In this document: piece after piece, positions 2,391 through 14,622 of the stretch | Numbering within the stretch: the stretch's first letter is position 1 | Layout: every line of letters starts with the position of its first letter | Source of the DNA: an uncultured virus (IMG/VR IMGVR_UViG_3300027278_000424) | Lineage: Duplodnaviria > Heunggongvirae > Uroviricota > Caudoviricetes | Virus record (IMG/VR): IMGVR_UViG_3300027278_000424 | Strand: one strand, 5' to 3' | Length of the DNA stretch: 20,000 nucleotides | Translations under genes and position numbers: made by a program | Notes under the pieces: model-generated | Database searches by the model: none | What the model was told of the DNA's origin: nothing | The model's input: the letters and a program-made list of their open reading frames with translations, nothing else

Positions 2391-4595
2391 ATGAAAGGAA
2401 CCCTTTTTTCAACAGATTTTGTTAAAGACTCTAATGGAAACTTAAGATTGCTTGAAATCAATACAGATACTGCTATTGTTTCTTCTGCAATCAAACAATT
2501 AGACTTTACAGGATTTAAACAAGTATTAGAAAGTAATTCTATTACAAAAGTAAAGACAATCCATAAACTATATCAAGAAGATATCGTAGAAGCATTAAAA
2601 GCATACTTAGATGCAAATGTACCTTCAGTAAACTCTTTTGAAAGTATAGTTGAAGATAGCAACACTATTTATCCTACATCTGTAGAAGATGCAGCAGATA
2701 CCTTTATCTTAAGGTTAGCTTATGATGAAGCTGCATTATTAGATAGTGAATATGCTAAAAACACACACAATATTCTAAAACTATTCAGCGACAATGGGCA
2801 AATTAGTTCAACAGTTGGGTATTATTATGCTGGAGGCGGTAGTATAGAAGACCACCTTACAAGAGATTTTAATGCTGAAAACGTTCCTGATATTTTAGTT
2901 AAAAACTTGAACACTACTTTAGGAGAGCCGATTGAGTTCTTTAAAATAGGTCAATCAAGTAAGACAGCTGAAGATAGATTTGCTGATGTATTCGATATGT
3001 TAGATGATACTAAAATTGCTATGAACTTCTACAACGATGAAGCAGCAGCAAAAGTAGAATCTTTTAGAACATTACACATAGTATACGGAAGCGACCTAAA
3101 CGTTATCGATGTAGCAGGATTTAAATCTTCAGCTATATTAGATAAACCAGCTTCTCTATCAGTAGTAGATGAAGATATAGTAACGAAAGTAGATGTAAAG
3201 CACTACCATGAATTAACTACTACATTACCTAGATTTGGAGTAGGTTCTAACTACGGAGGTATCTTTGAAGAAGAGTTTATTGTAAAAGCAGACGGTACGT
3301 TAGTACCTATTAAAGACGCTACAGTAGGAGATTCCTTTAAATCATACTTTATTTCAGGTTCACCCGATACAGACATTGAATCAGAATATCTAGCATGGAC
3401 TTACCCAGGATCTGAATTACCTAGTGGTTCTTACGCTACAACTTCTACTTTAGTAAACAACTTAGAAGTAGGTTTATTCTATAATATGATCTTCCACGTA
3501 ACTTTACAAGACGGAAGTGATTTTAGAGCAACAGGAAACTCTCACGTATTAGTTTACGATGTACAGGCAGACTTATTAAAGTATGTTGCAGTAAACTATC
3601 TATCATCAGATAAACATAAATTAATATCTGCAGGAAATGGATTAGTAGATATTACAGGAGTTGTTTGTGAGATATTAGATGGGGAGTATTCTTCTCATAT
3701 TCTAGATATGGAAATAGCCGATACATTCTTCATCGGTGATGGACAATTAAGCGTTAAGATTGTTGCCCACAACTGCTTCCCAGCTGGTACTAAAATTACA
3801 ATGGCTGATGGTTCAGTCAAAAACATTGAAGACGTTAAGGCAGGAGATAAACTATTAACTATCAACGAAAATACTTTAGAACAATCAGAAGGTAGAGTTG
3901 GAGATGTATTAGTTAAGAAAGATAGATTGTTATTCGAATTCAAATTAGAAGACGGAGGAGTAATCAAATCTACATCTCATCACAGATATTTCGTAAAAGA
4001 AAAGTCATGGTTAACTGCTCAAGATATTCAAGTAGGAGACGTATTAGTTAGATCAAACGGAGATGATGTCAAAGTAGAATCAATTGAACAGCACGAAGGT
4101 GAGTTTGAAGTATTCCATATTATTGATGTAAAAGATAACCATACTTACTACGCAGAAGATATTTTAGTTCATAACTATAAAGCTTGTTTCATCGCTGGAA
4201 CAGAGATTACTTTAGCGAATGGAGATGTTAAAAATATCGAAGATGTAGCAGTAGGAGAAGAAGTTCTTACTTACAACGAAGATAAAAAAGAAACAGAAGC
4301 AGGAGTAGTAGGAGACTTGAAGAAACATGAAGTTCAATCTGTAATCAGATTAACTCTTGATAATGAGAATGTAATCGTAACAACTGAAGAACATCCTTTC
4401 TATGTAGTAGATGCAGGATGGGTAAAAGCAGGAGAATTACAACCATTAGATGTTTGTTTAAAAGAAGACGGTAAAGAATCTCTAATCTCTTCAGTAGAGG
4501 TATTAGAAGAGAAACATGAAGTATTTAACTTACTAAGCGTTTCTGAAAACCATAACTTCTTCGCTAACGGAATATTAGTTCACAATAAAAAATAA
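2391..4595 (+). CDS. circularly permuted ATP-grasp-like domain fused to three tandem Hint (intein-like) domains
   Basis: N-terminal DFVKDSNGNLRLLEINTDT; Hint1 about aa 290-461 (GIFEEEFIVKADG...VAHN); Hint2 aa 462-595 (CFPAGTKITMADG...TSHH...LVHN); YKA linker; Hint3 aa 599-732 (CFIAGTEITLANG...TEEH...LVHN); then KK. Confidence 0.85.
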   Translation: MKGTLFSTDFVKDSNGNLRLLEINTDTAIVSSAIKQLDFTGFKQVLESNSITKVKTIHKLYQEDIVEALKAYLDANVPSVNSFESIVEDSNTIYPTSVEDAADTFILRLAYDEAALLDSEYAKNTHNILKLFSDNGQISSTVGYYYAGGGSIEDHLTRDFNAENVPDILVKNLNTTLGEPIEFFKIGQSSKTAEDRFADVFDMLDDTKIAMNFYNDEAAAKVESFRTLHIVYGSDLNVIDVAGFKSSAILDKPASLSVVDEDIVTKVDVKHYHELTTTLPRFGVGSNYGGIFEEEFIVKADGTLVPIKDATVGDSFKSYFISGSPDTDIESEYLAWTYPGSELPSGSYATTSTLVNNLEVGLFYNMIFHVTLQDGSDFRATGNSHVLVYDVQADLLKYVAVNYLSSDKHKLISAGNGLVDITGVVCEILDGEYSSHILDMEIADTFFIGDGQLSVKIVAHNCFPAGTKITMADGSVKNIEDVKAGDKLLTINENTLEQSEGRVGDVLVKKDRLLFEFKLEDGGVIKSTSHHRYFVKEKSWLTAQDIQVGDVLVRSNGDDVKVESIEQHEGEFEVFHIIDVKDNHTYYAEDILVHNYKACFIAGTEITLANGDVKNIEDVAVGEEVLTYNEDKKETEAGVVGDLKKHEVQSVIRLTLDNENVIVTTEEHPFYVVDAGWVKAGELQPLDVCLKEDGKESLISSVEVLEEKHEVFNLLSVSENHNFFANGILVHNKK

Positions 4596-4600
4596 GAATC

Positions 4601-4741
4601 ATGCCAGTAGTATATAAATCATTTGATTACCAAACAGAAGCAAGAGACAAAGCAGTAGAAGCAGCAGATGTAACTACAAAACAGCAAATGAATGACATCG
4701 TTGCAAGCTTTGTAAATTTATTTAAAGCTAAACACCTATAG
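4601..4741 (+). CDS. 46-aa small protein, not in ORF track
   Basis: MPVVYKSFDYQTEARDKAVEAADVTTKQQMNDIVASFVNLFKAKHL*; fills the gap between the Hint gene and the first oxygenase; same AATCATG start context as the Hint gene. Confidence 0.75.
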   Translation: MPVVYKSFDYQTEARDKAVEAADVTTKQQMNDIVASFVNLFKAKHL

Positions 4742-4755
4742 TATACAGCTTTAAA

Positions 4756-5283
4756 ATGGTTACTGAAAAAACGTTATTCTCACAACAAGATTGCGAATAC
4801 ATTAAATCATTTTATGATGTAGCAATTGAGAAGAACGAAAAAGGTTTCAAAATAAACTCAGACAAATACCCACAAGGTATAGCAATAAAAGACGGTTCAG
4901 CAGTATCATGGAATGAAATCCAAAACGATACTCTGGACCGTTTCTTGTTAAGTAAGCTTATAGAGTTAGAAATAACTTCACTCCCTTATCTTAAGCTAAT
5001 GAAGTACGGAGTCGGAAATGAAATGAAACCTCATAGAGATTTTCAGGCATATGATACAAGTACAATCTATAGATCAACAACAATACAGCTAACCAGTCCG
5101 GAAGATTATAAAGGAGGAGAGTTATATGTAGAAGGAGTAAAAGCTAGTAATATACAAGGAACTGCAATTATGTTTAACCCCTATCAAACACATTGGGTTA
5201 CAGAGATTACTGAAGGAGAAAGATGGGTTATAGTAGCTTTTTTAGAAGAGTTTCATTTTAATACTAAGAAAAGTTTATTATGA
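4756..5283 (+). CDS. 2OG-Fe(II) oxygenase (prolyl-hydroxylase/PKHD-like)
   Basis: HRD...YKGGEL...THWVTEITEGER: HxD...H triad plus 2OG-binding Arg. Confidence 0.9.
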   Translation: MVTEKTLFSQQDCEYIKSFYDVAIEKNEKGFKINSDKYPQGIAIKDGSAVSWNEIQNDTLDRFLLSKLIELEITSLPYLKLMKYGVGNEMKPHRDFQAYDTSTIYRSTTIQLTSPEDYKGGELYVEGVKASNIQGTAIMFNPYQTHWVTEITEGERWVIVAFLEEFHFNTKKSLL

Positions 5284-5789
5284 TTGATCAAAAAGTATTA
5301 TTTACAGCAGAAGAATGTGAGTGGTTGAAATCCGCACAATCAACTATATACCCACCAGTAGAAGATACTAAATGGTGGGAGTCACATCGTATAAATTATA
5401 GATTTAAAAATATACAAGAAAGAGAAGTATTTGAACAGTCACGTTTAGATTTTGTTGCTAGTAGAGTTAAACAATTAGGAGTGAAATCTGTTCCTACATA
5501 TAAAATTATACATTACGGTAAAGGTGGATTCTTCGCCCCTCACATAGATTCAGGGAGAAACCATCCAATTAGAAGAAAAACATTATTAGTGCAGCTATCC
5601 TCTAAAGAAGATTATTCTGGAGGTGATATGTATGTTAAGGGTGTACTTTTTGAAAAGACAATAGGCAATACAATATTATTTGATTCGTCATTAACTCATG
5701 AACTAAAATTAATAGAAGGAGGAAATAGATTAGTTATGGTCACATGGTTATCTATTTATAACCTTGAGAATCCTAAAACTTTACTATGA
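5280..5789 (+). CDS. 2OG-Fe(II) oxygenase
   Basis: FFAPHID...DYSGGD...THELKLIEGGNR. Confidence 0.9.
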   Translation: MIDQKVLFTAEECEWLKSAQSTIYPPVEDTKWWESHRINYRFKNIQEREVFEQSRLDFVASRVKQLGVKSVPTYKIIHYGKGGFFAPHIDSGRNHPIRRKTLLVQLSSKEDYSGGDMYVKGVLFEKTIGNTILFDSSLTHELKLIEGGNRLVMVTWLSIYNLENPKTLL

Positions 5790-6310
5790 TAACAGTTAAA
5801 CATAACGTACTGTCGGATAGAGAGGTAAACAAGCTACTCACTTTATGGTATGATACAAAACCTAACCATATTATAACAGACGGCTATAAGTATAATATTG
5901 AAGCAGTAGAGATTTTAGACTACATAGATAAATTAAAACTTTCGTATTCTTTTCCAAAAGAACACTATAGGGACTTTATACTACAGACAATAGATGAAAC
6001 ACATAGCAAAGCTCCTAATCATGACAAATATCACCGACATGAAAATGAATGGACATATGTTATGTACTTAAATGATAACTATCAAGGAGGAGAAATAGAG
6101 TTTACTAATGGAACTATCATTAAACCACAAGTAGGAGATGTTATATACTTTTCACCTGAAGAAGGACATAGAGTTAAACCCCCATATGATTTTACCGAAC
6201 AGTATTTTAAACACAACGGTAAGAGTATTCTTATGAATAAAAGATGGTCACTTGTCGGATTCATGAATTCTGACATTATAAACGAGAATAAAAAAACATG
6301 CTTAATTTAA
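5786..6310 (+). CDS. 2OG-Fe(II) oxygenase (divergent metal motif)
   Basis: YHRHE...VMYLNDNYQGGEIEF...GHRV...KRWSLVGF. Confidence 0.85.
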   Translation: MITVKHNVLSDREVNKLLTLWYDTKPNHIITDGYKYNIEAVEILDYIDKLKLSYSFPKEHYRDFILQTIDETHSKAPNHDKYHRHENEWTYVMYLNDNYQGGEIEFTNGTIIKPQVGDVIYFSPEEGHRVKPPYDFTEQYFKHNGKSILMNKRWSLVGFMNSDIINENKKTCLI

Positions 6311-7002
6311 TTTATACCTATTCAATCAAACTTAGCGGTAACAGTATAGAAAAATACGTTAAACTCCTAAATAAAGCATACCTACATAACAGTAAGTACC
6401 ATTCTATAGTACTATATACCGATAGGGAGACATTACCGTATGTAGAAGATATTTTTCCGGAGATAAGATTAGTAGAAATAGACAATCTTCAATTTATGGA
6501 TGATATAAAAATGAAGATTATAGATAAACTTGAAAGCAATAGTATACTTACAGATTACGATATCTTTTTAAACTCACCTTTAATACTTCCAGACAATTTT
6601 GATGTGTATGTAGATAGAAGAGGTAAGGTAAAAGAGTTAGTACTGTACAGCCATTTGTTTGAACATTTAAGACATGAAGGTTATGGTATTTTTACTAAAG
6701 ATGTAAATACCTATTTGAATGTAGGTATATTAAAAATCAACAGTGAACATAAAATAAAAGCTATTAAAGACGCATATTACGCTTTAAGAAATTGGTATGT
6801 GGATAATAAAATAGAAGAAAGAACTCAATTTACATACCATACAGGAGTATGCCCTTCTATAGCAGCTTTACAGTACAATTTAGATAAAATAGCTACTATA
6901 AGTAACTGGAAAGTATGTGAGATGAAAAAATACAACAACTACCATCATTTAGTTGGAGAAGATAAATTTAAAGAAATAAGCACAAAAAATACTGTGATTT
7001 AG
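6298..7002 (+). CDS. GT-A-like (DxD) glycosyltransferase-like protein
   Basis: IVLYTD, TDYDIFL, YLNVGIL motifs typical of GT-A/DUF6734-like proteins; similar layout to 7256..8044. Confidence 0.55.
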   Translation: MLNLIYTYSIKLSGNSIEKYVKLLNKAYLHNSKYHSIVLYTDRETLPYVEDIFPEIRLVEIDNLQFMDDIKMKIIDKLESNSILTDYDIFLNSPLILPDNFDVYVDRRGKVKELVLYSHLFEHLRHEGYGIFTKDVNTYLNVGILKINSEHKIKAIKDAYYALRNWYVDNKIEERTQFTYHTGVCPSIAALQYNLDKIATISNWKVCEMKKYNNYHHLVGEDKFKEISTKNTVI

Positions 7003-8059: not shown

Positions 8060-8410
8060 ATGAAAATTAAAGAGCTACTTTTAGGAGCCGTGTTATTTAC
8101 TCTCGGACAGAGCATAGCCTGGTACCAGACTAATGGGCAATTTATAAGTAGTTGGATAAAAGAACATCCGTTACTTATGTCGGCAATAGTTGGAGTACCT
8201 GTTGGGATGTGTTATATTTACGGAACAACGTACACAGTAAGTGCTTTTGAAGGAGAATTATGGCCGGCAAGAATTATAGGATTTACAACTGGTATATTTT
8301 CCTTTACAGTTCTTACTACACTACACTTAAATCAGACAATCGACCTTAAGACAGGTGTCATACTTAGTCTTGCAATTATAATTATTTTACTACAAGCTTT
8401 TTGGAAATGA
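8060..8410 (+). CDS. small 4-TM membrane protein (DMT/EamA-like size and topology)
   Basis: Four hydrophobic segments in 116 aa. Confidence 0.6.
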   Translation: MKIKELLLGAVLFTLGQSIAWYQTNGQFISSWIKEHPLLMSAIVGVPVGMCYIYGTTYTVSAFEGELWPARIIGFTTGIFSFTVLTTLHLNQTIDLKTGVILSLAIIIILLQAFWK

Positions 8411-9291
8411 ATTTTTTAGATAGTCAATATCAAGACCTCCTCAAATACATTATTGAGAAAGGTCAAATAAAAGAAGATAGAACCGGAACCGGAACATTAT
8501 CAGTATTTGGTAGACAATTTAGACATGAGATGTCATTAGGCTTTCCTCTCCTAACAACAAAGAAGATAGCAGTCAAAACTATGATGACTGAACTGAAATG
8601 GTTTCTAAAAGGAGATACTAATATCAAGTATTTAGTTGATAACGGTTGTAATATTTGGAATGGTGATGCTTATAAGAATTATAGAAATAAGTTTGAACCA
8701 GCCCCTTATCAATTTACTCCAGATACAATGGAAGAGTTCATCAACAAAATCAAAACCGATGATGAGTTCGCAGAGGAGTGGGGTGAGTTAGGTCCAATAT
8801 ATGGAAAGCAATGGACTGATTGGAATGGTATAGACCAGATATTAAATCTTCTTAACTCAATAAAGAAGAACCCAAATAGTAGAAGATTGATGGTATCGGC
8901 TTGGAATGTAGGTGAATTACATGAGATGACATTACCTCCTTGTCATTACGGATTCCAGATAAATGTTAGAGGAGAGTATTTAGACCTAATGTGGAATCAA
9001 AGAAGTGTAGATACATTTTTAGGAGTACCTTTTAATATAGCCTCATATGGTCTGCTACTTAGTCTAATAGCGTATGAGACAGGTTATAAGCCTGGTTCTC
9101 TCATAGGATCTCTAGGAGATACACATCTATACACAAACCATATAGAACAGGCGAAGGAACAGATAAAAAGAACTTCATTTGATCTTCCTACTCTTAAGAT
9201 TATTTCATCTGATATTCTAAATGGAGAGTTTGAAGTAGAGTTTGAGAACTATATTTCACATCCTGCAATAAAAGCACCTTTATCAAATTAA
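8401..9291 (+). CDS. thyA: thymidylate synthase
   Basis: DRTGTGT, FPLLTTKK, LGPIYG, LPPCH, QRSVDTFLGVPFNIASY, GDTHLY; start may be 8407 (ATGA overlap). Confidence 0.98.
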   Translation: MEMNFLDSQYQDLLKYIIEKGQIKEDRTGTGTLSVFGRQFRHEMSLGFPLLTTKKIAVKTMMTELKWFLKGDTNIKYLVDNGCNIWNGDAYKNYRNKFEPAPYQFTPDTMEEFINKIKTDDEFAEEWGELGPIYGKQWTDWNGIDQILNLLNSIKKNPNSRRLMVSAWNVGELHEMTLPPCHYGFQINVRGEYLDLMWNQRSVDTFLGVPFNIASYGLLLSLIAYETGYKPGSLIGSLGDTHLYTNHIEQAKEQIKRTSFDLPTLKIISSDILNGEFEVEFENYISHPAIKAPLSN

Positions 9292-9761: not shown

Positions 9762-10574
9762 ATGGCATGTGGTTGTGGAAGATCTCCAGACGGATGTAGA
9801 GGCTGGCACTCTTTAACAGAAGAAGAATTCAAAGTAGAATATGATGCGTTTCTAAAAGAAAAAGATGGTATCTTAAGAGTAAAAGAGGTAGAACATTATA
9901 CCGATACTCTATTCAAATTCAAGTTAACTAAAACAGACGAATATAAATTTAAGGCCGGACAGTTTACAATGTTAAATGTAGACGGTGCACCAAAAAGAGC
10001 TTATAGCTATACAAGTGGTCCGGAAGATGATTTTATAGAGTTCTATAGTATAAAGGTACCAAATGGACCTCTTACAAGTAAGCTTCAGAAGATACAAGTA
10101 GGAGACTTTGTAAATGTTTCTCCAAAAGCTACTGGAACACTCATAGTAGATAATCTTACAGAAGGAGACGATTTATGGTTACTTGCTACAGGAACTGGAA
10201 TTGCACCATTCATTAGTATGTTATGTGATCCTTTAACTTACGACAGATTTAAAAACATTCATGTTGTATGGTCGGTAAGAGTAAAAGAAGAACTAGACGC
10301 TTTTCATGATTGGTTAGGAAGTATAGGAATAGATTATATTCCAATTGTTACTCGAGATGATAGATGGGAAGGAGAGAAAGAAAGAATAACAACTCTTATT
10401 CAAAGAGGAGACATAATGAAAGATAGTACTCCAGATAATGATAAAGTAATGCTATGCGGTAATATGGACTTCAACAAAGAGATAAAAAATCTACTTGTTG
10501 ACGAAAGAGGATGGGTAGAAGGTAATAGTAGACAAGCAGGATCATTTGCTTTAGAGAAAGCTTTTGTTGGATAA
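9762..10574 (+). CDS. fpr: ferredoxin/flavodoxin-NADP+ reductase with N-terminal CDGSH-like Fe-S motif
   Basis: FKAGQF, RAYSY, GPLTSKL, ATGTGIAPF, MLCG, EKAFV; N-terminal CGCGRSPDGCRGWH. Confidence 0.9.
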   Translation: MACGCGRSPDGCRGWHSLTEEEFKVEYDAFLKEKDGILRVKEVEHYTDTLFKFKLTKTDEYKFKAGQFTMLNVDGAPKRAYSYTSGPEDDFIEFYSIKVPNGPLTSKLQKIQVGDFVNVSPKATGTLIVDNLTEGDDLWLLATGTGIAPFISMLCDPLTYDRFKNIHVVWSVRVKEELDAFHDWLGSIGIDYIPIVTRDDRWEGEKERITTLIQRGDIMKDSTPDNDKVMLCGNMDFNKEIKNLLVDERGWVEGNSRQAGSFALEKAFVG

Positions 10575-13423: not shown

Positions 13424-13602
13424 AGTTAGTATATACTCAAGAGACTATCAACTACATGGCTAAAATTAATCCTCAACTCATAGAAGATCTAGCCAAATAC
13501 GGAGCACCAGAACCAGTCGAACTATTAGATGATAAGGGAACTATAATAAACAAGTACTATCTATATAATATTAATGAAGATACTTCCGAACATATTAGCT
13601 AA
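13420..13602 (+). CDS. hypothetical protein
   Basis: 60-aa ORF, ATGA-coupled. Confidence 0.6.
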   Translation: MKLVYTQETINYMAKINPQLIEDLAKYGAPEPVELLDDKGTIINKYYLYNINEDTSEHIS

Positions 13603-14104
13603 AGAATATGTTTCTTCTATACTTTCTAAACAAAAGCAGTTAGGGTATAAAGGAAGAGAATCATCTCCTATACATTTGAATTCTGCTATTGTAGAATGGA
13701 ATATAGAAGGATATTGGAATAATGATGATGCAGTAGTACTTTCATTTGAAGATAAAGGCTTCGTATTTCTTCTATATACTTTTCAAAAGGATATAAACGG
13801 AACAGATAAACTCTACTGCGAAATAAGGCACATAGTAACATTAGAACAGTATAGAGGACAAGGTACCGGTAAGCAGTTAGTAGAAGCAACTGCAAAACAC
13901 ATGAAAGAGAGAGATTGTCAAATCTTAAAAGTCCTTTCAGATATTAAATCTAAAAACTTCTACATTAAAAATGGATTTGAGGTTTCCGGAATAACAAAGC
14001 ACGGACTATCCTACTTCTGTAATGATATTACTTCTAGGAGAAATGTTTCAATGCCTGCTAGTGATTTTCCTTTTATGACTAATTCTCCTAAATCAATATT
14101 ATGA
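13574..14104 (+). CDS. GNAT-family N-acetyltransferase
   Basis: IVTLEQYRGQGTGKQL (acetyl-CoA binding motif A) and FYIKNGF (motif B). Confidence 0.88.
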   Translation: MKILPNILAKEYVSSILSKQKQLGYKGRESSPIHLNSAIVEWNIEGYWNNDDAVVLSFEDKGFVFLLYTFQKDINGTDKLYCEIRHIVTLEQYRGQGTGKQLVEATAKHMKERDCQILKVLSDIKSKNFYIKNGFEVSGITKHGLSYFCNDITSRRNVSMPASDFPFMTNSPKSIL

Positions 14105-14622
14105 GAGGTATAATTAGAAATGTACTCAATCAATCTGATATAGACTCTATTTTTAAACTATATAATGAGTCTTCTAATATTGTTGAATTATATGGAGAGT
14201 TAAAAAATAGACATAACATTTCAAGTAATTTAGGAATGTTTCTTTTATCACATTTTACACAAAAAGAGTTTCAACCATTCCTTTCTAAAATTATACCTTC
14301 AATAGAAGCTAAAGAAAGAATTGAATTAGAAACTACTTCATGTAGGGTACTTAAATACACGAAAGATTGCTTTATTTCAAAACATAGAGACATTAAAACT
14401 TCAGAAGCCAATTCAAGCCTTTCGGTAATAATACAGCTCTCTAATCAAGATGAGTACGTAGGAGGAAAAGCGATTATAGACGGAGAAGAAAGTATACTAC
14501 AGCAAGGTGATTTAGAGTATTATACCTATAGTTACGAACATGAAGTTACTAAAATATTTTCCGGTTGTAGGTATGTTATTAACTTACGAATTAATATCAA
14601 AAAAGATTCAACTTTAATATAA
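14101..14622 (+). CDS. 2OG-Fe(II) oxygenase
   Basis: KHRD...SVIIQLS..EYVGG...HEVTKIFSGCRY. Confidence 0.9.
   Translation: MRGIIRNVLNQSDIDSIFKLYNESSNIVELYGELKNRHNISSNLGMFLLSHFTQKEFQPFLSKIIPSIEAKERIELETTSCRVLKYTKDCFISKHRDIKTSEANSSLSVIIQLSNQDEYVGGKAIIDGEESILQQGDLEYYTYSYEHEVTKIFSGCRYVINLRINIKKDSTLI

Follow-up and report, generated by a model that had tools for sequence, protein, structure and literature searches.

The closest described systems to the gene analysed here are the bacterial intein-like (BIL) domains. According to PMC7765530, A-type BIL domains are recognised by a Cys at position 1 (Cys1), a C-terminal His-Asn and a C-terminal flank without a nucleophile, and they act mainly by cleavage; in PMC7664689, BIL domains lacking a nucleophile at the +1 position give mostly cleaved products. 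A variation is provided by BIL2 of Tetrahymena, for which section 2.4 of PMC8616854 describes lysine as the nucleophile and an isopeptide bond as the product. More widely, intein-like domains are usually seen as parasites that occupy conserved sites of enzymes, or as devices for releasing toxins and signals. The gene described here lies in a 20,000-nucleotide (nt) stretch of DNA (the window) from the uncultured virus record IMGVR_UViG_3300027278_000424. It encodes an ATP-grasp-like domain (the N-domain) followed by three back-to-back Hint domains, and places intact BIL-type Hints in tandem at the extreme C-terminus of the protein, with a Lys as their one-residue flank; these Hints appear to move between distant homologues. 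On balance we favour, with moderate confidence, a reading in which the protein is a permuted ATP-grasp ligase with an integral first Hint and a Lys tail, and mobile BIL-type Hints sit within that tail. The parts of the gene are as follows, with lengths and residues in amino acids (aa).

2391..4595, plus strand: whole open reading frame (ORF), 734 aa, comprising the ATP-grasp-like domain, Hint1, Hint2, YKA, Hint3 and KK
2391..3257, plus strand: N-domain, aa 1-289, modelled as a circularly permuted ATP-grasp-type ligase fold, with LLEINTDT at the N-terminus
3258..3773, plus strand: Hint1, aa 290-461, with Gly at position 1, block B degenerate, an insertion that forms a conserved loop, and HN retained at 460-461
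3774..4175, plus strand: Hint2, aa 462-595, intact and BIL-like, with C462, T528..H531 and H594 N595, and Tyr at +1
4176..4184, plus strand: YKA linker, aa 596-598, a putative remnant of a variable tail
4185..4586, plus strand: Hint3, aa 599-732, an intact BIL-like Hint of an apparently laterally mobile lineage, with Lys at +1
4587..4592, plus strand: Lys-Lys end, of which the first Lys is kept across the family

Mapping of the residues placed positions 3258-4595 from G290 to the stop codon. VAHN occupies residues 458-461 and is directly adjoined by C462, HN 594-595 is followed by YKA and then C599, and after HN 731-732 only KK remains before the stop; the three junctions called in the initial annotation (VAHN|Cys462, YKA and the terminal KK) were all borne out in this way. 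Hint2 and Hint3 have the same length, 134 aa, and their gap-free alignment shows 40% identity (expect value (E) 5e-35). The Pfam family PT-HINT (PF07591) matched the protein at E 4.5e-29, its 101.9 bits exceeding the cut-off of 27.7; the matches to Intein_splicing, Hint, Hom_end_hint, Vint and Hint_2 were likewise above the gathering cut-off, and no endonuclease family was matched by Pfam. In an alignment of 31 sequences C462, T528, H531, H594, N595, C599, H668 and N732 are invariant, and T665 and H731 are conserved in at least 90%. The fold, Cys1, TxxH and terminal HN of the HINT superfamily are therefore all present in Hint2 and Hint3, and Pfam and the residue mapping agree with the earlier description of two intact domains without an endonuclease.

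The nearest PDB sequence to Hint2 is the BIL domain 2lwy of C. thermocellum (E 4.2e-15), and Hint3 matched BIL2 of the Tetrahymena BUBL locus (PDB 6y75/6tmm) at E 4e-12, which supports the proposal that both resemble cleavage-type BIL domains. The residues at +1 are Tyr596 for Hint2 and Lys733 for Hint3, and a Cys is found only after Hint1. Both domains have the features of the A-type, namely Cys1, a C-terminal His-Asn, no nucleophile in the C-flank and BIL domains as their closest kin, and judged by sequence they would work like A-type BIL domains. They share with 2lwy a length of about 134 aa, Cys1, TxxH, the terminal HN, the lack of an endonuclease and the lack of Cys, Ser or Thr (C/S/T) at +1. 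They differ in belonging to a phage enzyme, in their tandem arrangement at the extreme C-terminus, in a C-flank of 1-2 residues without a toxin domain, and in the intein-like lateral mobility suggested for Hint3.

BIL2 of the BUBL locus is the second-best sequence relative (for Hint3) and a top fold match for Hint1. What is shared is a Lys, which is the BIL2 nucleophile and the conserved +1 residue of the last Hint here; we infer from this likeness that the phage Hints may use Lys. No ubiquitin-like family was found in the protein by Pfam, so BUBL-type flanks are lacking, and the N-flank is instead an ATP-grasp enzyme with a pseudo-Hint. With class 1 mini-inteins, Hint2 and Hint3 share Cys1, TxxH, HN, insertion beside a conserved host residue and, in the case of Hint3, what looks like lateral transfer at exact domain boundaries. 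Both lack the C/S/T at +1 of canonical class 1 inteins, having Tyr or Lys there and a C-extein only 1-2 residues long, and they lie in a tail of the host protein instead of an active-site motif; HN|C between Hint1 and Hint2 is the sole canonical-looking C-terminal splice junction. PT-HINT domains are defined by a position upstream of a C-terminal toxin domain, which the Hint releases. Here 1-2 residues follow the last Hint and there is no such toxin domain, and Hedgehog-type Hog processing is also a poor match, as KK alone follows Hint3 and there is no sterol-recognition region. The initial annotation had taken it as established that canonical splicing needs C/S/T at +1. Exceptions to this are documented among BIL domains, including the Lys isopeptide of BIL2 in the section of PMC8616854 cited above.

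Over 120 full-length homologues were found, with identities of 41-93%, and 90 relatives were confirmed on viral contigs of up to 326 kb. Locus counts given from here on refer to the best 80 of these 90 viral relatives. The N-domain and Hint1 are present in all 80 loci, and the canonical Hints that follow number one, two or three in 29, 37 and 14 loci, respectively, by a script whose envelopes are loose, such that at least four of the rows with three Hints hold a spurious extra match. A search of 1.84 billion representative proteins with an N-domain profile gave 331 clusters at 50% identity. Among the 150 matches listed from it the N-domain begins at residue 1 in most, and those with a later start look like fragments or longer forms. 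Architectures were classed for 147 representatives among these matches: 24 have the core only, 42 have one additional Hint, 36 have two and 2 have three, while the remaining 43 have the N-domain without a match to Hint1 and many of them are fragments. The number of canonical Hints on the same core thus ranges from 0 to 3.

The ends of the proteins without canonical Hints are informative. They are 460-490 aa long and terminate in HN plus 1-10 residues that include a K (for example FHNK, HNAKSY, HNKVKIEPPK and HNYKLKPQF). When Hint2 and Hint3 are taken out of the window protein, ...AHN-YKA-KK is left, which is the same type of end. A more distant Hint-free group of 490-550 aa has HN followed by a Cys-rich tail of about 30-80 aa that ends in K or Kx, such as HN-VCTGCSWSACGNYWCDSSCIGCGFGSGGQK. 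This Cys-tail group is viral, with 203 relatives, and HN and five Cys are invariant in 13 of its sequences. A sister subfamily (P0230-P0263, loci L087-L166) has the same core and a six-Cys tail of about 30 residues, HN-SCWCPWNYCGHWCNSNYCPGC...K[LI]. Of 121 representatives, 98 have a K among their final three residues, compared with 15% expected from composition, and the residue after the terminal HN is K in 66 and R in 5 of 83. Among the 120 homologues the tail after the last HN begins with K in 114, and the six others have longer tails. From these alignments the conserved core appears to be ATP-grasp, Hint1 with its HN, and a Lys-ended tail.

The linkers between the Hints are far less constant. 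The later junctions of the 120 homologues have 71 different linkers of 0-11 residues, among which FKYGGGS is the most frequent; a single R or K accounts for 19 cases and YKA for one. It had been set in advance that variable linkers across homologues would argue against a role for YKA, and the suggestion that YKA is a functional unit is therefore not upheld. The 0-aa junction between Hint1 and Hint2 holds for the window protein and for 91 of the 120, and is not universal: A, AP, SP or NP is found in 24, five could not be parsed, and distant members have 5-14 residues there. SICLOPPS-like head-to-tail cyclisation between the Asn of Hint1 and the next Cys1 was considered as a general role and rejected, as 91 of 120 have no residue to cyclise.

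To look for mobility, the identity between Hint modules was set against that between the N-domains of the same proteins. In 818 of 62,771 module pairs the Hints were ahead of the N-domains by more than 30 points. The clearest case is P0096, which is about 40% identical to the window protein (P0001) over residues 1-598 and 98% identical from C599 to K733; the change coincides precisely with the boundary of the Hint (VHN-YKA|CF against VHN-R|CF). P0100 shows the same jump, with Hint3 at 94%. The Hint3 type also occurs at 78-85% identity between a Cys-rich tail and a terminal KK in proteins whose N-domains are 25% identical, and a second Hint type occupies that Cys-tail site in loci L090 and L110. 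In a blastn comparison of the window gene with L089, Hint3 aligned at 75% (gene nt 1794-2208), and the other piece was 61 nt of Hint2, also on the Hint of L089. Hints of one protein have a median pairwise identity of 35%, which shows that the tandem copies are not recent duplicates. Spread at exact boundaries was seen for Hint3 and not for Hint2, with no endonuclease family by Pfam, and the identity profiles point to Hint3 as a laterally mobile cassette exchanged between distant family members.

One way to explain this is that the canonical Hints are purely selfish, intein-like parasites without a role, tolerated in a disposable tail; cleavage at the Asn of Hint1 would strip off everything downstream, so that they would cost the host protein nothing. 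The copy number of 0-3 on the same core, the lateral transfer of Hint3 at an exact boundary and the conservation of the Hint1 HN whatever comes after it all agree with this. However, insertion is not found just anywhere in the tail: it lies directly before the conserved terminal Lys, which is kept past the last HN, and this suggests a need to restore or present that residue. Nor is there an endonuclease to drive spread, and both ends of Hint2 and Hint3 are intact over deep divergence. We regard a purely selfish origin without a role as unlikely, at the level of a minority explanation.

Hint1 was not called by Pfam. Its profile matched that of Hint2 in hhalign with a probability of 95% (E 3.3e-8) and that of Hint3 with 82% (E 1e-5), compared with 0.1% for the N-domain against Hint2 as a control. 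An AlphaFold model of residues 285-461 had a predicted local distance difference test score (pLDDT) of 87, and when it was searched with Foldseek the first match was 2lwy (E 4.6e-9, template modelling (TM) score 0.87 on the target), followed by BUBL BIL2, DnaB inteins and Hedgehog 1at0. Hint1 therefore has the HINT fold. It lacks the N-terminal nucleophile: Gly290 stands at the Cys1 position, invariant in 31 of 31 sequences and in at least 90% of a wider set of 38, and the His of TGNSH in block B is not conserved in distant members. By contrast HN 460-461 is invariant in 31 of 31, D444 is invariant and E441 is conserved in at least 90%, and D444 lies within the stretch that the profile comparison aligned to the block F region of Hint2. 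The insertion is strongly conserved as GS.LPSGSY.TSS, with one invariant Ser. Alignment, hhalign and Foldseek agree with the initial annotation of a Hint with Gly for Cys1, TGNSH, an insertion and a retained HN. Going by these residues, Hint1 appears to be a Hint that has lost its N-terminal nucleophile and kept HN, and to keep just what Asn cyclisation needs, namely HN, an invariant Asp and a near-invariant Glu. As its HN is kept whatever comes after, Hint1 probably cleaves the tail off the ligase.

The N-domain was identified by fold search alone. No Pfam family matched it at E up to 1, and comparison with PDB sequences, using the single sequence or a 38-sequence profile, gave only chance-level matches (HA2 at E 0.69 and thioredoxin at E 0.3). 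A model built from the 38-sequence alignment had a pLDDT of 90.9, and its Foldseek matches were E. coli YgiC/YjfC, glutathione synthetases of eukaryotes and the synthetase domain of GspS, at a probability of 1.00, E values between 3.4e-7 and 1e-5 and a TM score on the query of just ~0.44. A VIA search, which is independent of Foldseek, also placed the permuted class first, with Z 9.4-8.1 over 202-222 residues within model residues 1-280. The best match had Z 9.4 and a root-mean-square deviation of 4.8 over 215 residues, and the top 11 rows are of the glutathione synthetase/GspS class, the related ligase Cp1B, or the putative members 3n6x and 3k1t. Glutathione synthetase, GspS and YgiC form a circularly permuted class of ATP-grasp enzymes. 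The position of LLEINTDT at the very N-terminus fits such a permutation, the N-domain has the permuted-order ATP-grasp fold in the model, and it models as a circularly permuted ATP-grasp ligase of this class; the earlier call of an ATP-grasp-like N-terminal part was correct in so far as these fold matches go.

E22, N24, K59, R108, K171 and R226 are invariant in the N-domain alignments. We assume that these map to the active site and that E-x-N is the metal-binding motif, and all six are compatible with an active ligase, E22, N24, K59, K171 and R226 also with carboxylate-amine ligation that depends on ATP and Mg. In common with the known permuted ligases are the fold over model residues 1-280 and E-x-N near the start of the aligned part. 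The domain differs from them in being only 289 aa, without the first 90-150 residues of the known enzymes, in having no sequence-level match in Pfam or PDB, and in its fusion to Hints. The result is a virus-only family in which a minimal permuted ATP-grasp ligase is joined to a Hint that seems to retain the Asn-cleavage half only.

In the reading that we favour, Hint2 and Hint3 are lodged in the host tail, Hint2 right after the HN of Hint1 and Hint3 right before the terminal Lys. The apparent exteins of 0 aa, YKA and KK would then be five residues of the host tail, and tandem arrays would arise by repeated gain at the tail site. After translation the intact Hints would remove themselves by N- and C-terminal cleavage, giving a product equal to the Hint-free relatives, that is the core with HN and a short Lys tail; the Asn of Hint1 would then cleave this tail from the core. 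In the Cys-tail subfamily the same cleavage would free a peptide of about 30 residues. At the 0-aa junction, the Asn of Hint1 and the Cys of Hint2 would act on one and the same peptide bond. Self-removal could alternatively proceed by non-canonical ligation mediated by Lys or an alpha-amine, as reported for BIL domains. To go by their titles, Dassa 2004 and Aranko 2013 are said to deal with splicing or ligation by BIL domains without nucleophilic side chains. By analogy with these and with the Lys isopeptide of BIL2, the conserved +1 Lys could be re-attached. The autoprocessing cascade that had been proposed from the sequence survives in part: Hint1 kept on the enzyme while the other Hints leave fits the family, because the core is present in 80 of 80 loci and canonical Hints vary from 0 to 3, whereas YKA as a product does not.

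Several points weigh against this reading. Hint2 shows no excess of identity (55-59%, compared with 40-45% for the N-domain) and might have been resident for long or serve a function. The close relatives P0002-P0011, at 68-93% identity, all keep both Hints. This retention and the conservation of catalytic residues across the family agree equally well with a selected function and with an active selfish element. The apparent movement of Hint3 occurs without any homing endonuclease in the protein. If the tail is in any case cleaved off by Hint1, there is no obvious reason for precise excision. For the Hint-free proteins the library gives no genomic context, so that some of them may have been truncated at contig ends. 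Finally, cleavage as opposed to splicing, the order of events and the role of the Lys are all inferred from sequence.

The gene itself is securely assembled. Three other viral contigs have a copy at 100% identity, the sequence cluster of the window protein is present on 16 contigs, and contigs of runs X8, X9 and X10 and of the RNA library X11 span 3200-4800 without an indel or joint. The RNA library may also contain DNA, so coverage of the gene by X11 is no proof of transcription. In run X8, contig ends were observed near 4143-4151 and 4277-4301, flanking the Hint2/Hint3 junction; they could stem from strain variants with differences in the Hint3 cassette, or from assembly noise. These breaks are the one feature that would speak for an assembly artefact or a decaying pseudogene, to which we give next to no credence. 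They are bridged without indels by contigs of other runs (X11 record 11, 4122-4761, and X10 record 8, 4071-4800), the frame is open through 734 codons, and full-length homologues number in the hundreds; the identical copies, the bridging contigs and the homologues together refute that explanation. The assembly check called for in the initial annotation has thus been made, with continuity in contigs of four runs and an identical gene on three further viral contigs.

The ligase gene has a small neighbour and heads a series of genes with a common type of C-terminus. In the window these are:

4601..4741, plus strand: partner ORF, 46 aa, MPVVYKSF...FKAKHL, starting 6 nt past the ligase stop
4756..7002, plus strand: four consecutive tagged genes, encoding 2-oxoglutarate (2OG)-Fe(II) oxygenases with the ends KKSLL, PKTLL and KKTCLI, and a 234-aa protein with the end TKNTVI
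13574..14622, plus strand: two further tagged genes, encoding a GNAT acetyltransferase (PKSIL) and a 2OG-Fe(II) oxygenase (KKDSTLI)

The partner ORF (43-50 aa) is present in 80 of 80 loci. It was placed directly after the gene in 78 of them by the first script; in the other two, truncation of the ligase gene call made it appear further on. In 51 partner sequences Tyr5 is invariant, and Lys6 and the His of the C-terminal K.KH are conserved in at least 90%; the C-terminus follows the pattern K.KH[LSM]. A related ORF ending in K.KHL follows 75 of the 76 Cys-tail genes that have room downstream. The partner has no Pfam or PHROGs family, and in the ESM Atlas its best score was 0.84, to unnamed clusters that were uninformative.

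The constant presence of this partner bears on another possibility, the cascade of the initial annotation, in which the Hints are a built-in thioester activator. Cys462 would activate the Asn461-Cys462 bond and the enzyme-Hint1 unit, or a linker, would be passed to an outside nucleophile, which could be a lysine of the 46-aa partner in the manner of BIL2 with ubiquitin-like domains. The invariance of C462 and of HN 460-461 (31 of 31), the Lys isopeptide made by a BIL domain in the section of PMC8616854 already cited, the invariant Tyr5 and nearly constant Lys6 of the partner, and its occurrence in every locus are consistent with such transfer. Against it, the YKA part fails on the variation of the linkers, the Hint1-Hint2 junction is not always 0 aa and Hint3 looks like a recently moved cassette. 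Moreover, 24 of the 147 classed representatives have no canonical Hint, hence no thioester-forming Cys, and keep the core, HN and Lys tail. Transfer of this kind is in our judgement improbable, although it merits some weight.

Tags were defined as K, one to three residues of any kind, two hydrophobic residues and the end of the protein, and ORFs of at least 100 aa were scored. Downstream of the ligase gene the tag was found in 119 of 196 ORFs (61%) at 0-2 kb, 64 of 125 (51%) at 2-4 kb and 50 of 123 (41%) at 4-6 kb, compared with 5-7% of ORFs at 4-8 kb upstream and 1.65% for the pattern at internal control positions. The record that contains the window has 8 tagged ORFs among 110, and four of these are the genes directly past the partner ORF. 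In 60 of the 80 loci, the 3 kb downstream of the ligase gene include a 2OG-Fe(II) oxygenase. The 239 tagged ORFs fell into 43 clusters, and Pfam was run on 28 representatives chosen by cluster size. It gave 2OG-FeII_Oxy_3 or _5 in six (three of them under the curated cut-off), SET in three, radical SAM in two, and a weak methyltransferase and a weak GDSL lipase match in one each; 15 of the 28 had no Pfam match, and the 234-aa tagged protein of the window (TKNTVI) has no Pfam or PHROGs family. Judged by these matches the tagged genes would encode types of enzyme that modify proteins or peptides, and the ligase most likely acts together with its 46-aa partner and the tagged modifying enzymes downstream.

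A bolder interpretation of these data is that the locus is a protein-tagging module of the phage, that the ligase recognises short Lys-containing end-tags (its own tail, the K.KHL of the partner and those of its neighbours) and that the Hints are lysine-dependent inteins with a one-residue C-extein. The tags of SET, 2OG-oxygenase, radical-SAM, methyltransferase and GNAT proteins would be ligated or be ligated onto, Asn cyclisation by Hint1 would free the ligase from its own tail, the +1 Lys as nucleophile would restore the C-terminal Lys via an isopeptide bond, and the Cys-rich peptide of 30 residues would be the released product in one subfamily. Taken as a whole, we rate this as a doubtful combination of steps. 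The likeness between the tail of the ligase and the tags of its neighbours, with Lys near the end, has also been considered in another light, namely that the Hints are domesticated regulators and the ligase is inactive, with its Lys tail as a pseudo-substrate or the Hints as a steric block, until a timed self-cleavage. The conserved catalytic residues would suit such a role, but members without Hints would need some other control and the mobility of Hint3 contradicts a finely tuned regulator; we consider regulation by the Hints very unlikely.

A pattern scan for the N-domain in 185,579 species genomes gave three loci, one a true relative on a 2.8-kb contig of a Cyanobium metagenome-assembled genome and two weak, although as the scan was pattern-based it does not prove absence elsewhere. 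In 50,697 phage records searched by tblastn only the Hint parts were matched, in inteins of unrelated genes, and no match covered 80% of the query. In PHROGs the protein matched phrog_21587 (unknown function) over residues 449-567 only. On this sequence evidence the gene would encode a virus-restricted enzyme. The fusion of ATP-grasp and Hint, the one-residue Lys flank and the gene pair were not described in the literature searched, which did not extend to most subscription journals or to supplements.

The family lends itself to testing whether splicing or ligation can do without a C/S/T nucleophile, and to studying how arrays of Hints come about. Its ligase is always paired with a partner of 43-50 residues and heads arrays of end-tagged genes for putative protein-modifying enzymes, and its substrate, once found, could reveal a new protein modification by marine phages. 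The compact Asn-only Hint and the Lys-flanked Hints are possible parts for protein engineering.

The window lies within a virus record of 94.8 kb, estimated to be 58% complete, with a G+C content of ~0.31. All 51 ORFs of at least 200 aa are on one strand, and the record encodes a ribonucleotide reductase, a family B DNA polymerase, GroEL, QueC/QueE-like genes and a baseplate wedge protein. The source is a large tailed marine phage. Outside the window, G000:C1 7001-19091 (loci L082 and L083) carries QueC-like and QueE-like genes, a GTP cyclohydrolase, a GroEL homologue and several glycosyltransferases; the QueC/QueE-like and GTP cyclohydrolase genes, among others, suggest 7-deazaguanine DNA modification in the phage. 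Two further observations were made in the window. At 573-1805 on the plus strand there is a 410-aa FG-GAP repeat protein whose N-terminus, MKKIILSLSILFIVSC, resembles a lipoprotein signal, an unusual cargo for a phage. At 8401-9291 and 9762-10574, also on the plus strand, a ThyA-type thymidylate synthase and an FAD/NAD-binding reductase-like protein are encoded in the same one-strand block.

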